Assembly: GCA_026416715.1 (NCBI GenBank)
Contig: JAOAEQ010000011.1
Location: 12,580-76,579, forward strand
DNA from: a bacterium
Lineage (GTDB): Bacteria > UBP4 > UBA4092 > JAOAEQ01
Direction: 5' to 3'
DNA: 64,000 nt
A model generated the notes under the pieces. The model was not told where the DNA came from. It did no database searches and worked only from the letters and a program-made list of their open reading frames with translations. The translations under genes were made by a program, and so were the position numbers. Below are positions 39,209-43,670 of the stretch, piece after piece (the first letter of the stretch is position 1; the number at the start of each line of letters is the position of its first letter).

Positions 39209-40162
39209 GTGAAATGTATGTTGATGATTAGAACGGAAAATTTATCGAAAGTATATCTGGTGAAAAAGTTTGCGCTTGCGATTAAACCGAAAAAGACAGT
39301 GGCATTAAATCGGTTGAATTTAGAAGTTCAATCCGGTGAAATTTTTGGTTTCCTTGGTCCGAATGGTGCAGGGAAAACCACTACGATTAAGCTTATCCTT
39401 GGTCTTTTGTTTCCGACTGAAGGGCAAACCTGGTTATTTGAGCAGCCAGCAACGAGAGTTGATGTGAAACGAGAAATCGGGTTTTTGCCGGAGAACCCCT
39501 ATTTTTATGATTATCTTAAAGGGGAAGAAATCCTGCATTTTATGGGTCAGTTGTATGGAATTAATAAATCTGACCGTGTGCGGAAAGTAGATGAATTACT
39601 CAAAAAAGTCGGGTTAGAAGAAGCTCGGTCGATGCCATTACGCAAATATTCCAAAGGGATGCTCCAGCGGATAGGACTGGCACAAGCACTGTTAAATGAT
39701 CCGAAACTAGTCATTCTTGATGAACCGTTAACCGGTCTCGACCCGATCGGCAGAAAAGAAATCCGCGATTTAATACTTCAACTGCGGGATGAAGGGAAAA
39801 CTGTTTTCTTTAGTACCCATATCTTATCAGATGCAGAAATGATTTGCGACCGGGTAGGGATGCTTATGAAAGGGAATTTGACGAAGGTTGGAAAACTCTC
39901 AGAGTTGCTGAATCCGCAGGTTAAATCAATTGAAATAGTTATTGCTGGTCTTTCAGCGGAGGGAAAACAGCAGGTACAGAAATTTGCGAACCGAATGAAA
40001 GATTTAGGGAATGAATTGGTAGCGAATTTAGCAGATGAAAAATCAGTTCCAGCACTACTCGAATTAATTAAACAAGAACAAGCGAAACTGGTTTCACTAA
40101 TTCCGCAGAAAGAATCGCTCGAAGAAGTATTTATGCGTGAAGTAAAAGAAAGCCAAGAATAA
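39209..40162 (+). CDS. ABC transporter ATP-binding protein
   Basis: Walker A GPNGAGKTT. Signature YSKGMLQRIGLA. Walker B ILDEP. The start may be ATG at 39218. Confidence 0.85.
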   Translation: MKCMLMIRTENLSKVYLVKKFALAIKPKKTVALNRLNLEVQSGEIFGFLGPNGAGKTTTIKLILGLLFPTEGQTWLFEQPATRVDVKREIGFLPENPYFYDYLKGEEILHFMGQLYGINKSDRVRKVDELLKKVGLEEARSMPLRKYSKGMLQRIGLAQALLNDPKLVILDEPLTGLDPIGRKEIRDLILQLRDEGKTVFFSTHILSDAEMICDRVGMLMKGNLTKVGKLSELLNPQVKSIEIVIAGLSAEGKQQVQKFANRMKDLGNELVANLADEKSVPALLELIKQEQAKLVSLIPQKESLEEVFMREVKESQE

Positions 40163-40314
40163 CCGGCATATCCAACATACAAAAATAAATGTTAAAGAAA
40201 AAACTTTAAATGCCAAAATAAAATCAAAAACCATGAAAACGCGAAAATTGACCATTATGGAATAAAGTTGGTAATAGGGTATTTCGATTTTCGTGATTTC
40301 GTGGAAGGTGAACT

Positions 40315-41214
40315 ATGCTCAAACGAATCAGTGCAATTGCAGTGAATACGTTCCGGGAAGCAATCCGGAATAAAATCTTGTACATCCTATTAGTTTTTGC
40401 GATGGTGTTAATTTTATTTTCGGTTATCCTGGCGATCCTCTCTATTGGTCAGGAACAGAAGATTATTAAAGATGTCGGGCTATCCGCGATTCTGTTTTTT
40501 GGTGTGTTGATTTCAATTATGGTGGGTATCGGACTGATATATAACGAGCTGGATAAACGAACGATTTATGTTATCGTGTCGAAACCCATCCATCGGTATG
40601 AATTTGTACTCGGGAAATTTTTCGGACTTCTCCTGACGTTAGCAGTGAATGTTATTCTCATGTCAATCGTCTTTTTTCTGCTGGTGATATTCCGTCAACC
40701 GGTGACCACGATTATTGACCAAGTCATCTTCTGGCTTGGTCGCGTTACCCCACACCAGATGTGGTTGATGGTTAAAGAAGCCGCGTCAACCTTTACAACC
40801 GCATTGAATAATCTACCGGAATTATTGCCGTTAACTAAAGCTATCGCATTCACGTTTCTCGAGCTGACTGTTATCACGGCATTAGCGGTTATGTTTTCAT
40901 CGTTTTCTACGCCGATTCTCTCGGCGGTATTTACCTTCATTCTATTCATTGTCGGACATTTAACCCAGGATTTATTAATGCTGGCAGATAACTTGATTAA
41001 GAAAGGAACCGGCATCGCATTAGCTATCGCCTATTTTGCAAAAATATTCGCATATCTCCTTCCGGATTTAGAAGTGTTAAATATTCGGAACCATGTGGTG
41101 AGTAATGTGCCGATAACCTGGAGTTTAACCCAATCAGCGGTTTATGCGATTTTCTATACTTGCTGCGTGTTAATTATTGCCGTGTTAGCGTTCGAACGGC
41201 GAAACTTTAAATAA
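40315..41214 (+). CDS. ABC-2 family transporter permease
   Basis: 299 aa, 6 TM helices. Follows the ATPase gene. Confidence 0.7.
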   Translation: MLKRISAIAVNTFREAIRNKILYILLVFAMVLILFSVILAILSIGQEQKIIKDVGLSAILFFGVLISIMVGIGLIYNELDKRTIYVIVSKPIHRYEFVLGKFFGLLLTLAVNVILMSIVFFLLVIFRQPVTTIIDQVIFWLGRVTPHQMWLMVKEAASTFTTALNNLPELLPLTKAIAFTFLELTVITALAVMFSSFSTPILSAVFTFILFIVGHLTQDLLMLADNLIKKGTGIALAIAYFAKIFAYLLPDLEVLNIRNHVVSNVPITWSLTQSAVYAIFYTCCVLIIAVLAFERRNFK

Positions 41215-41306
41215 CATATACCGAAAAATAATTGAACTTAAAAACGAAAGAACAACGGCGAAGTGAATACTTCGGTTCTTTTGTTCTTTCGTCCTTAGGT
41301 TAGTCC

Positions 41307-42158
41307 ATGAAGTTAGGTAGAAATCCGTTTATTATCACCGCACTAATCTGTTTGCTCATTATCGCTATCGGAGTGCATGCACTGCATCTGCATGTGCGGA
41401 AGAACCGAGGGCAGAATCCGTTCCAGGAATTATTGTATCTTCCTTCAGGAAAATATCTTAAAGTTGTTGTTCTCGGGTTCGATAATGTTATTGCCGATAT
41501 TCTCTGGCTACGCGCTATTCAATATTTTGGCGGGCATTTTATGGGCGATAAAAACTATGCGATGCTTGACCGGATTTTTGAAGTGACAACCACGTTAGAA
41601 CCAACCTTTATTGATGTATATCGGTTTGCTACGATGGCACTCGGTGAAGAAGCACGGAGATATACCGAAACCACGACGCTGCTCTGGAAAGGAATCGAAC
41701 GTAATCCGACCAGTTGGGAAATCCCATACGACCTCGGATTTTTCCTGTTGTATACGGTTAAAGATTATGACCAGGCATTGCTTGCCTATTCGATCGCAAC
41801 GTCGCGTCCGAATTGTCCAGATTTCGTCCATCGAATTATTCCGTTTATCTACTCTGAAACGGGCCGAGAACAGATTGCTATTGAGCGGTGGCGAGAAATA
41901 TATCGAACTGCAAAAGATGACATGACCAAAGAAATCGCTGACCGAAACATTAAACTCATATATCTGAAAAAAGCGCTTAAACCCATGCGAGAAGCGTTAC
42001 TCGCGTATAAGAAAAAACATGGTCGGTTCCCACCAAATATTGAAACGTTAGTCCAGGAAGGATATCTCCGAAAAATTCCACCGGAACCATATGGTAGTGG
42101 CTGGGCGTATGATCCCCAAACCGGTTGGCTGCGGAGTAAATTTCGTCCGGAATATTAA
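41307..42158 (+). CDS. Membrane-anchored TPR-like protein with C-terminal GspG (pseudopilin)-like domain
   Basis: N-terminal TM (not a prepilin G/F-E5 signal). Helical repeat region. C-terminus ALLAYKKKHGRFPPNIETLVQEGYLRKIPPEPYGSGWAYDPQTG matches the T2SS GspG globular-domain consensus (LD.G.YP...GL.AL......P.DPWG..Y.Y). Confidence 0.5.
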   Translation: MKLGRNPFIITALICLLIIAIGVHALHLHVRKNRGQNPFQELLYLPSGKYLKVVVLGFDNVIADILWLRAIQYFGGHFMGDKNYAMLDRIFEVTTTLEPTFIDVYRFATMALGEEARRYTETTTLLWKGIERNPTSWEIPYDLGFFLLYTVKDYDQALLAYSIATSRPNCPDFVHRIIPFIYSETGREQIAIERWREIYRTAKDDMTKEIADRNIKLIYLKKALKPMREALLAYKKKHGRFPPNIETLVQEGYLRKIPPEPYGSGWAYDPQTGWLRSKFRPEY

Positions 42159-42263
42159 CGGACGATAATCCGGAAACTTAAATAGTATCCGTGGATTACC
42201 CTTGAGATGAACGGCTACTAACCGAACTCATTGGGGTACATCTACAGATCATTCTGCTCTCCT

Positions 42264-43670
42264 ATGCGCCAAGCGAATATTCTCGTTGTCGATGATGAGA
42301 AAAATATTCTAACTACATTATCGCGCGCGTTAACCAACTTGGGTTATGCCGTAAAAACGGCTACTTCTGCTGAAGAAGCGCTAGAATTAATTCGTGAAAA
42401 TGGATTCGATTTAGCTATTATTGACCTTTGCTTGAAGAAGATGGATAATAATGAAGGATTGGAATTACTGAAACGAATTCGGGAACTCGAACCGGAGATA
42501 ATCACGATCATGATGTCAGGCCATGGCACTATGGGGATTGCGGTGCAGGCGGGGAATTTTGGTGCAGTTGATTTTATTGAAAAGCCATTATCGCTGGAAA
42601 GGATTCAATTTTCCGTTGAAAAAGCATTAAAACTGAATCAACTTGAACGCGAGAATATCGAACGGAAACAAAAAGAAGAAGCTGAATATCAACTGATCGG
42701 AACCAGTAAAGTTATGCGGGAACTCTACAAAAAGATAGAAGTCGTTGCGCCTACGAATGCGCGGGTACTGATTTGCGGAGAGAATGGAACTGGGAAAGAA
42801 TTGGTTGCGCGAGCCATCCATTATAAAAGTCCTCGGAAAAATCAGCCGTTTATTAAGGTCAACTGCGCAGCGATTCCAGCAGAGTTGATTGAAAGTGAAC
42901 TGTTCGGTCATGAAAAAGGAGCGTTTACTGGCGCAACGGAACGACGTCGTGGGAAATTCGAACTCGCTGATGGTGGAACCATTTTTCTCGATGAAATCGG
43001 GGATATGAGTTTGCCGACGCAAGCGAAAATTTTGCGGGTTTTAACCGATGGATTGATTGACCGAGTCGGCGGAAGTAAACCGATTAAAGTCGATGTTCGA
43101 GTGCTAGCGGCAACGAATAAAAATCTAGAGCAAGAAATCCAACGTGGGAATTTCCGGGAAGATTTATACTATCGACTGAATGTTATTCCATTTCACGTTC
43201 CGCCGTTACGTGAACGGAAAGAAGATATCCAACTATTAGCGGAACATTTTTTAAACCGATACTGCGAAGAAGCGAGAAGTAATGCTCGAATATTTACTCC
43301 GGTCGCGATACGGCTATTAATGCAATATGATTATCCTGGAAACGTTCGAGAACTGAAAAATATCGTGGAACGGGCAGCCATTTTGATTCCTGCTGACCGT
43401 GATGAAATTACTGAGAAAGATATTGCGCCACTATTACCAACCTCATTTCGACCGGTTGAGTCGGATATACCGAGCAGTTCGCTTAATCTCGGAATAAATG
43501 AACGGCTCCCGTTGAAAGAAGCAAGTGAACAATTCGAAAGAGCGATGATTATTTCTGCGTTAGAACGGAATGAATGGAATGTTAGTAAAGCGGCACTCGA
43601 ACTGCAGATTGAACGGAGCCATCTCTATAAAAAGATGAAAACCTACGGTATCGAAAGAAAACTTACCTAG
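42264..43670 (+). CDS. Sigma-54-dependent response regulator (NtrC family)
   Basis: Receiver (ILVVDDE...D). AAA+ sigma54-interaction domain (GENGTGKELVARAIH, GAFTGA). C-terminal Fis-type HTH. Start ambiguous (TTG at 42231 or ATG at 42264). Confidence 0.9.
   Translation: MRQANILVVDDEKNILTTLSRALTNLGYAVKTATSAEEALELIRENGFDLAIIDLCLKKMDNNEGLELLKRIRELEPEIITIMMSGHGTMGIAVQAGNFGAVDFIEKPLSLERIQFSVEKALKLNQLERENIERKQKEEAEYQLIGTSKVMRELYKKIEVVAPTNARVLICGENGTGKELVARAIHYKSPRKNQPFIKVNCAAIPAELIESELFGHEKGAFTGATERRRGKFELADGGTIFLDEIGDMSLPTQAKILRVLTDGLIDRVGGSKPIKVDVRVLAATNKNLEQEIQRGNFREDLYYRLNVIPFHVPPLRERKEDIQLLAEHFLNRYCEEARSNARIFTPVAIRLLMQYDYPGNVRELKNIVERAAILIPADRDEITEKDIAPLLPTSFRPVESDIPSSSLNLGINERLPLKEASEQFERAMIISALERNEWNVSKAALELQIERSHLYKKMKTYGIERKLT

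Follow-up and report, generated by a model that had tools for sequence, protein, structure and literature searches.

A probable PilGHI-type gene cluster

A stretch of 64,000 nucleotides from a bacterial contig (JAOAEQ010000011.1 of assembly GCA_026416715.1, positions 12,580 to 76,579), referred to below as the window, carries at its positions 39209-43670 four co-directional genes for an ATP-binding cassette (ABC) ATPase, an ABC-2 type permease, an accessory protein of 283 amino acids (aa) with tetratricopeptide repeat (TPR)-like repeats, and a sigma54-dependent response regulator (RR). We assign this cluster, with a probability of roughly 0.6, to the PilGHI type of accessory ABC module of a type IV pilus or type II secretion system (T2SS)-like filament system. 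Most likely, the set is a detached copy of the PilG-PilH-PilI ABC transporter, together with a PilR-like regulator and a PilB-like ATPase, and the locus is a rearranged member of this known, mechanistically obscure kind, not a new envelope system. The genes and the region between them and the divergent ATPase gene are as follows.

39209..40162, plus strand: ABC transporter ATPase, PilH-like (DrrA/GldA subfamily); Pfam ABC_tran 1.4e-28, with DrrA1-3_C
40315..41214, plus strand: ABC-2 type permease, PilI-like; Pfam ABC2_membrane_2 5.5e-6
41307..42158, plus strand: PilG-like accessory protein, 283 aa; anchor, TPR-like repeats, GspG-like C-terminal module
42231..43670, plus strand: NtrC-family sigma54-dependent response regulator, PilR-like by position; REC-AAA+-HTH_8
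37124..38665, minus strand: PilB/GspE-class assembly ATPase, divergent; Pfam T2SSE 1e-128
38666..39208, no strand: divergent intergenic region, 543 bp; no pilin open reading frame (ORF), no canonical sigma54 promoter, a hairpin

A reading of the window made from its sequence alone (the sequence-only reading) had described four co-directional genes with short gaps, and all four ORFs were confirmed on the plus strand, with gaps of 152, 92 and 72 bp. Family scans and a structural model bore out the gene set that it had proposed, an ABC-2 transporter, a TPR-like anchored protein and a sigma54 activator; the genes for the accessory protein, ABC ATPase and permease are adjacent. The best NCBIfam subfamilies for the ABC ATPase are DrrA and GldA, each far under its equivalog cut-off, and the true start of the gene is probably the ATG at 39219 or 39225, past a GAGGTG ribosome-binding site (RBS). 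The permease scores slightly under the Pfam gathering cut-off. The product of the fourth gene has the complete domain set of a sigma54 activator, with REC, Sigma54_activat (1.9e-74) and HTH_8 all recognized by Pfam/NCBIfam. The divergent ATPase matches the NCBIfam models GspE (537 bits) and PilB (493 bits), both under the equivalog cut-offs, and its gene is followed downstream by cvpA and recN, instead of pilC.

Trio homologues between pilA and pilD in pilus clusters

Members of the 283-aa protein's family that are about 25% identical to it were located inside type IV pilus clusters. Homologues of the trio lie between pilA and pilD, in the Myxococcus xanthus order, in loci L006, L012, L017-L019, L026, L027, L041 and others. 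Clusters of the L006 type run sigma54 RR-pilA-X-ABC-permease-pilD, X being the family gene, and continue with histidine kinase (HK)/RR genes and PilM; the L006 genes are topA, sigma54 RR, PilA, X, ABC ATPase, ABC-2 permease, prepilin peptidase, pilin, HK, sigma54 RR and PilM. Other arrangements include three T2SSE genes followed by T2SSF, PilA, X, ABC and permease (L051, Omnitrophota), and sigma54 RR, two pilins, Wzy_C, X, ABC and permease (L005). Five loci from Actinomycetes (L056-L060) read pilins-ABC-permease-X-PilD, with the trio in the H-I-G order seen in the window. Omnitrophota, Nitrospira, Pseudomonadota and Actinomycetes are all represented among the scanned loci.

The layout of these clusters matches that of MXAN_5783-5780 of M. 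xanthus, where pilA, pilG, pilH and pilI form a single operon and PilG is annotated as an "ABC transporter accessory factor" (PMC3546991). For this reason the statement of the sequence-only reading that the coupling of these genes is "not a described arrangement", and that the locus is a "candidate novel envelope system", found no support: members of the same families sit at the pilG-pilH-pilI positions of type IVa pilus (T4aP) clusters. The M. xanthus pil locus comprises three structural clusters, pilBTC, pilGHI and pilMNOPQ (PMC5544727). PMC3724824, with reference to Wu et al. 1998, states that pili are lost when pilG, pilH or pilI is deleted, the genes being needed for type IV pili (T4P) and S-motility, and calls PilGHI "essential for the translocation of pilin across the IM" (inner membrane). 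The genetic evidence that PilGHI is required for pili comes from M. xanthus only. Homologues have been reported in T4aP clusters of Desulfuromonadales, Bdellovibrionales and Deferrisoma by a comparative study, which stresses that experimental data explaining PilGHI are lacking (PMC6060248).

Conservation of the trio

A genome scan returned 50 loci, which were annotated with phmmer and hmmsearch; 26 of them had at least 2.5 kb on both sides of the family gene and are referred to as well flanked. In 24 of the 26, the ABC ATPase gene was adjacent to the family gene, and the same was true of the ABC-2 permease gene (24/26), so that the co-conservation proposed by the sequence-only reading was upheld by the neighbourhood check. 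A pilA gene was found within 4.5 kb of the family gene in 20 of these loci; PilD was near it in 19 and a sigma54 regulator in 15. The window permease matched the permeases of pilus-cluster trios with phmmer E-values of 1e-38 to 1e-52 (as against 5.5e-6 with the Pfam model), and the window ATPase matched the ATPases encoded beside family genes in pilus clusters at 1e-68 to 1e-97, compared to 3e-20 for an unrelated neighbouring ABC ATPase. All three proteins are thus homologous to those of the pilus-cluster trios; because the ATPase and the permease fit their counterparts in pilus clusters much more closely than they fit generic models, the three proteins travel together as orthologues.

Synteny is also conserved in closer relatives. 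The contig of a 75%-identical relative (P0003) has a layout identical to that of the window: cvpA and a T2SSE gene on one side and, on the other, the genes for ABC ATPase, permease, X and sigma54 RR. The T2SSE ATPase of this contig, with its identical neighbours, is close in length (515 aa) to the divergent ATPase of the window. In locus L001, from a 49%-identical relative, the ABC-permease-X-RR order is kept and the divergent operon encodes a T2SSE that has MshEN, a T2SSF, and a protein of 199 aa bearing the prepilin motif FTLLELLIV; the L001 counterparts of the window ATPase and permease are 62% and 56% identical to them, respectively. These two loci sustain the link that the sequence-only reading had drawn to the divergent PilB-like ATPase and to filament systems. 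Homologues of 38% identity that lack the C-terminal module are still encoded after an ABC ATPase and an ABC2_membrane_2 permease, and the adjacency was also seen in contigs of 25-49%-identical members. It held in every independent metagenome contig with sufficient flank.

In the divergent ATPase of the window, residues 1-112 form a zinc ribbon (C-x2-C...C-x2-C) and two helices predicted to span the membrane, which replace the MshEN/N-terminal domain; residues 113-507 are 52% identical to the L001 ATPase, which has MshEN.

A GspG-like module at the end of the PilG-like protein

No curated family in Pfam or NCBIfam matched the 283-aa protein. An AlphaFold model built on a 100-sequence alignment (predicted local distance difference test, pLDDT, 94.9; predicted template modelling score, pTM, 0.85) shows an N-terminal hydrophobic helix (residues 7-33), helical repeats (48-201) and a C-terminal part made of a 34-residue helix (205-238), a short helix and a two-stranded beta-hairpin (266-277). 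A Foldseek search of the model against the PDB returned TPR arrays only (MamA and OGT among them, with PilW, 2vq2, at rank 40), so the body of the protein is TPR-like in the generic sense.

The C-terminal module, at approximately residues 222-283, was the part for which the sequence-only reading had claimed a likeness to GspG without a prepilin leader. Taken alone, the window sequence stays below threshold with Pfam T2SSG (PF08334; E 0.14-0.18, 12-13 bits against a cut-off of 21). When a profile built from 69 homologous C-terminal modules of family members was searched against all PDB sequences, the top eight matches were all GspG-type major pseudopilins, with E-values of 1e-5 to 1.5e-4: GspG of enterohaemorrhagic Escherichia coli (3g20), EpsG (3gn9/3fu1), 4lw9, XcpT (2kep), PulG (1t92), 5wda and another GspG. 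The next match was unrelated (3e-3). Individually, 27 of the 69 modules gave a weak match to Pfam T2SSG. Judged by this profile, the C-terminal 60 or so residues are related to the globular core of GspG, at a level under that of curated membership. The N_methyl/prepilin leader motif is absent from the 283-aa protein, in which the module begins only after 220 residues of TPR protein. We know of no description of a pseudopilin-like domain in PilG.

A large unannotated family

Only nine relatives of the 283-aa protein were retrieved by a word-indexed search, whereas an exhaustive profile search with the family yielded 6,848 cluster representatives at E<=1e-3, 429 of them at E<=1e-30. They come from Omnitrophica, "Deltaproteobacteria", Deferrimicrobiaceae and unclassified metagenome-assembled genomes (MAGs), and are annotated at source as "hypothetical" or "TPR repeat protein"; the sole Pfam assignment in the family is the generic TPR model PF13428, on two matches. 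The conserved core consists of the anchor, an N-terminal motif, YLP..GF(D)..AD..W..QYFG, and the TPR body. Counted over 158 family sequences, the C-terminal module is present once in 100, twice in 29 and three times in 3, and is missing from 26, which makes it an optional, duplicable appendage. Tandem copies occur among members P0012-P0137 (for example P0021, P0056 and P0076; P0046, P0049 and P0050). What appears to be new is how broad the family is, along with the leaderless pseudopilin-like module and its occasional tandem repetition.

The sequence-only reading had gone further and entertained a rudimentary export or surface-filament apparatus, in which a leaderless pseudopilin-fold protein and an ABC-2 exporter would make up a new envelope machine. 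The fusion of a leaderless GspG-like module to a TPR anchor, encoded beside an ABC-2 exporter and a PilB-like ATPase, speaks for such a machine, as does the absence of the family from Pfam and NCBIfam. However, the arrangement fits the known pilGHI layout, and a filament made from the module is unlikely, since it has no hydrophobic alpha1N helix for polymerization, is shorter than GspG and is missing in the 26 members just mentioned. We regard this explanation as highly improbable.

Sigma54 promoters and the intergenic hairpin

Sigma54 promoters were scored with the -24/-12 consensus TGGCAC-N5-TTGC. Of 38 strong sites across the loci, 23 lie about 50 nt 5' of pilA, which links sigma54 to pilA in relatives of the window cluster. 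This agrees with the sigma54/PilR dependence of M. xanthus pilA that Wu & Kaiser are said to have described in 1997. The sole strong site in the 15-kb locus L001 is a perfect sigma54 promoter, TGGCACAATTTTTGCT, at 6015-6030 on the minus strand; it is located between the divergent genes and is directed at the T2SSE-T2SSF-prepilin operon, which begins 132 nt away. A sigma54 RR gene stands beside the trio both in L001 and in the P0003 contig. The sequence-only reading had counted a dedicated NtrC-type regulator as part of an undescribed arrangement; a sigma54 activator and a sigma54-dependent pilA promoter are normal partners in pilus clusters.

Over the whole window the pattern TGG-N9-TGC occurs 35 times, as against 18.2 +/- 4.6 expected from shuffles, an excess which hints at many sigma54 promoters. 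One candidate site, TGGTATAAGTTTTGCA (21011-21026, plus strand), is found directly 5' of the ORF at 21043-21840; another (19090-19105, minus strand) is upstream of a LysM/M23 peptidase gene (17901-18911).

Directly 5' of the GAGGTG RBS of the ABC ATPase gene, at 39175-39199 on the plus strand, a perfect 9-bp hairpin (GAACCTCCG...CGGAGGTTC) is followed by ATTTTT. It looks like a terminator or attenuator, though no plus-strand gene lies upstream. Rfam recognized no family in the 543-bp gap or the hairpin, the best result being a sub-threshold small RNA match (E 0.26).

Glycosylation genes around the trio

The main rival to the PilGHI assignment is a glycan or polysaccharide exporter: the trio would be an ABC-2 flippase of lipid-linked sugars for pilin O-glycosylation or for a surface polysaccharide, with PilG as a periplasmic adaptor, and its link to pili would arise via pilin glycosylation. 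In 8 of the 26 well-flanked loci a Wzy_C gene (O-antigen-ligase or oligosaccharyltransferase-like) lies between pilA and the family gene, and in five of these eight an initiating glycosyltransferase gene follows the permease gene (loci of this type: L063, 1478-9488; L005, 5353-14858; L032, L033, L037, L042 and L046). Such "glyco-extended" clusters comprise, in this order, pilA, the gene for the Wzy_C-domain protein, the family gene, ABC and permease genes, genes for initiating and other glycosyltransferases, and PilD, an arrangement suggestive of islands for pilin glycosylation built around the trio. In L007 the genes directly upstream include four for glycosyltransferases or methyltransferases. 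In Geobacter, the gene for the ABC ATPase GSU1501 (xapD) is presumably found just downstream of pilA. GSU1501, a candidate orthologue of PilH, has been called a sugar exporter (PMC5585712), which would count for a glycan exporter here; so does the insertion of 14 kb that separates pilD from pilH in two genera of Desulfuromonadales (PMC6060248). Most pilus-cluster trios are compact, however (pilA-X-ABC-permease-pilD), and lack sugar genes, as does the window cluster, and the glycosylation genes flank the trio in the manner of insertions. The presence in L005 of a separate Wzm/Wzt-like ABC pair beside the trio suggests that the trio itself is not the glycan exporter. Furthermore, the M. xanthus mutants wholly lack pili (PMC3724824). 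On balance, glycan export seems an unlikely function for the trio.

Points that weigh against the assignment

A number of observations weigh against assigning the window cluster to the PilGHI type. Pilin, PilC, PilD and PilMNOPQ genes are not found next to it, and neither an ORF with a prepilin leader nor PilD was detected anywhere in the 64-kb window, which leaves the PilB-like ATPase as the only adjacent pilus gene; the 543-bp gap, searched for a small hidden pilin gene, contained none. The sigma54 promoter that the sequence-only reading had suggested looking for upstream of 39209 is absent: the region 38640-39230 yielded none with either the TGG-N9-TGC pattern or the weighted consensus scan (best score, 13.5 of 20). 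Family trios also occur on their own, without pilus genes (L061, L062, L003/L004 and L007). The loci of the genome scan are skewed toward a single clade, whose alignment supplied the search patterns; in contigs selected independently the trio is the same, and the pilus genes often are too. PilGHI membership rests on positional equivalence in syntenic clusters and not on direct alignment with the M. xanthus proteins. In addition, the positive-inside rule is ambiguous as to the topology of the 283-aa protein, and the GspG-like module, being optional, is not the core of the mechanism.

Some of these points feed a further explanation, that the trio here works on its own in ABC-2 efflux or envelope maintenance, with no relation to pili, and is linked to its neighbours by gene-order ancestry only. 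The lack of pilus structural genes in the window and of a sigma54 promoter in the intergenic region would fit such a system, as would the divergent ATPase without the usual N-terminal domain and the stand-alone trios elsewhere, of which L061 has the same gene order. Set against this are the synteny of PilB-like ATPase, trio and sigma54 regulator, kept at 75% and 49% identity and at 49% still taking in PilC, a prepilin and a sigma54 promoter, and the intact, very confidently modelled pseudopilin-like module. We consider a stand-alone system quite unlikely and retain the PilGHI assignment.

In the short-form family loci L003 (322-1665, 3851-4461) and L004 (707-1246), genes of the toxin-antitoxin type (PIN, HEPN/nucleotidyltransferase, DUF2281) are found among the trio genes.

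Other genes of the window

Approximately 15 kb from the cluster, a 211-aa ORF (58304-58939, plus strand) contains a single T2SSF (GspF/PilC) domain (E 2.6e-21) and is half the normal size of PilC. It adjoins genes for a CheY-like receiver (57587-58027, minus strand) and a NirD/L-like AsnC regulator (58908-59372). The gene at 13003-14160 (plus strand), preceded by an SH3_3 lipoprotein-like ORF at 12421-12978, encodes a protein of 385 aa in which several zinc-ribbon motifs (DZR, Zn_Ribbon_1) are accompanied by a weak DUF4440-like match at the C-terminus (0.0062, under the cut-off).

A possible mechanism and its significance

In a PilGHI-type module, PilH and PilI would together make up an inner-membrane ABC-2 engine. 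PilG would be anchored by its N-terminal helix, with the TPR body and the pseudopilin-like module in the periplasm, a topology suggested by the kind of domains present and by the N-terminus, which resembles a signal anchor. PilG would serve as an adaptor through which ATP-driven movements of PilI act on pilin or pseudopilin subunits, or else on the assembly platform; its leaderless GspG-like module would recognize pilin head domains by contacts of the pilin-pilin type. The step assisted would be an early one in subunit handling (membrane translocation, extraction or priming), at which M. xanthus genetics places PilGHI. Pilin would thus be the client of the trio, and in the present MAG the pilins would be encoded elsewhere. 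More speculatively, PilG modules might grip pilin heads while force from PilH/PilI moves the pilins into or out of the inner membrane pool, a widespread and unrecognized energy-dependent step; in the lineage of the window its partner would be a self-anchored PilB-like ATPase, the whole amounting to a pared-down filament system. We advance this as a doubtful proposal.

PilG, PilH and PilI have reportedly been known since 1998 to be essential for Myxococcus type IV pili; they have often been treated as a myxobacterial peculiarity, and their mechanism is unexplained. The accessory protein defines a very large family, with thousands of representatives and no Pfam or NCBIfam model, which is coupled to the same ABC-2 transporter in Omnitrophota, Nitrospira, Actinomycetes, Desulfuromonadota-like and unclassified lineages, usually within sigma54-controlled pilus clusters. 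That PilG-like proteins commonly end in one to three leaderless pseudopilin-like modules offers a concrete, testable idea for PilGHI function, namely pilin recognition through a pilin-like domain, and the family can serve as a marker for annotating PilGHI-type genes. For the window itself the practical gain is an improved annotation and not a new system; how large and phyletically broad the family is, its absence from curated libraries and its leaderless, repeatable module should be of moderate interest to pilus specialists.

Comparison with known systems

With the gliding-motility ABC transporter GldA/GldF/GldG and other ABC-2 exporters that have periplasmic partners, such as NosDFY, the cluster shares a DrrA/GldA-subfamily ATPase, an ABC2_membrane_2-type permease and an extracytoplasmic accessory protein, and an analogy in mechanotransmission is possible. 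Its accessory protein, however, bears no relation to GldG or NosD, and the gliding and nos gene contexts are absent. A Gld-type gliding transporter was rejected, the score with the GldA model TIGR03522 being 203 bits against a cut-off of 402.6, with no match to GldF or GldG in NCBIfam; the Gld analogy drawn by the sequence-only reading comes down to similarity of ABC subfamily.

The all-helical TPR body recalls PilF/PilW/Tgl. The 283-aa protein differs from these factors in having no lipoprotein signal, in carrying its own conserved N-terminal motif and in being encoded beside an ABC transporter, not a secretin. An identity as a TPR factor of this type was dropped, the similarity being that of TPRs in general.

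GspG is the sole protein in the PDB to which the module bears a significant relationship (E 1e-5). The region aligned to GspG/PulG/EpsG/XcpT covers the end of alpha1C, the turn G-x-Y/F-P...L..LV and the strand P-x-D/E-P-W/F/Y-G-x-x-Y. The alpha-beta loop is about 15 residues shorter in the module, which also lacks the C-terminal strand and the calcium-binding loop, so that the three-stranded sheet is not complete (two short strands in the model). Unlike GspG, the module has neither a prepilin leader nor the hydrophobic alpha1N helix, is fused to a TPR protein in one to three tandem copies and, in the window protein, remains under the Pfam cut-off.

From PilG-PilH-PilI of M. xanthus (MXAN_5782-5780), the window set departs in its H-I-G order, which it shares with the actinobacterial clusters, in the membrane anchoring of its partner ATPase, and in having neither adjacent pilA, pilD and pilC genes nor a detectable sigma54 promoter. 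What the two sets share is a composition of three parts (accessory protein, ABC ATPase, ABC-2-type permease) and a link to PilB as well as to a sigma54 activator (PilR), and the families to which the window proteins belong hold the pilG, pilH and pilI positions between pilA and pilD in syntenic clusters.

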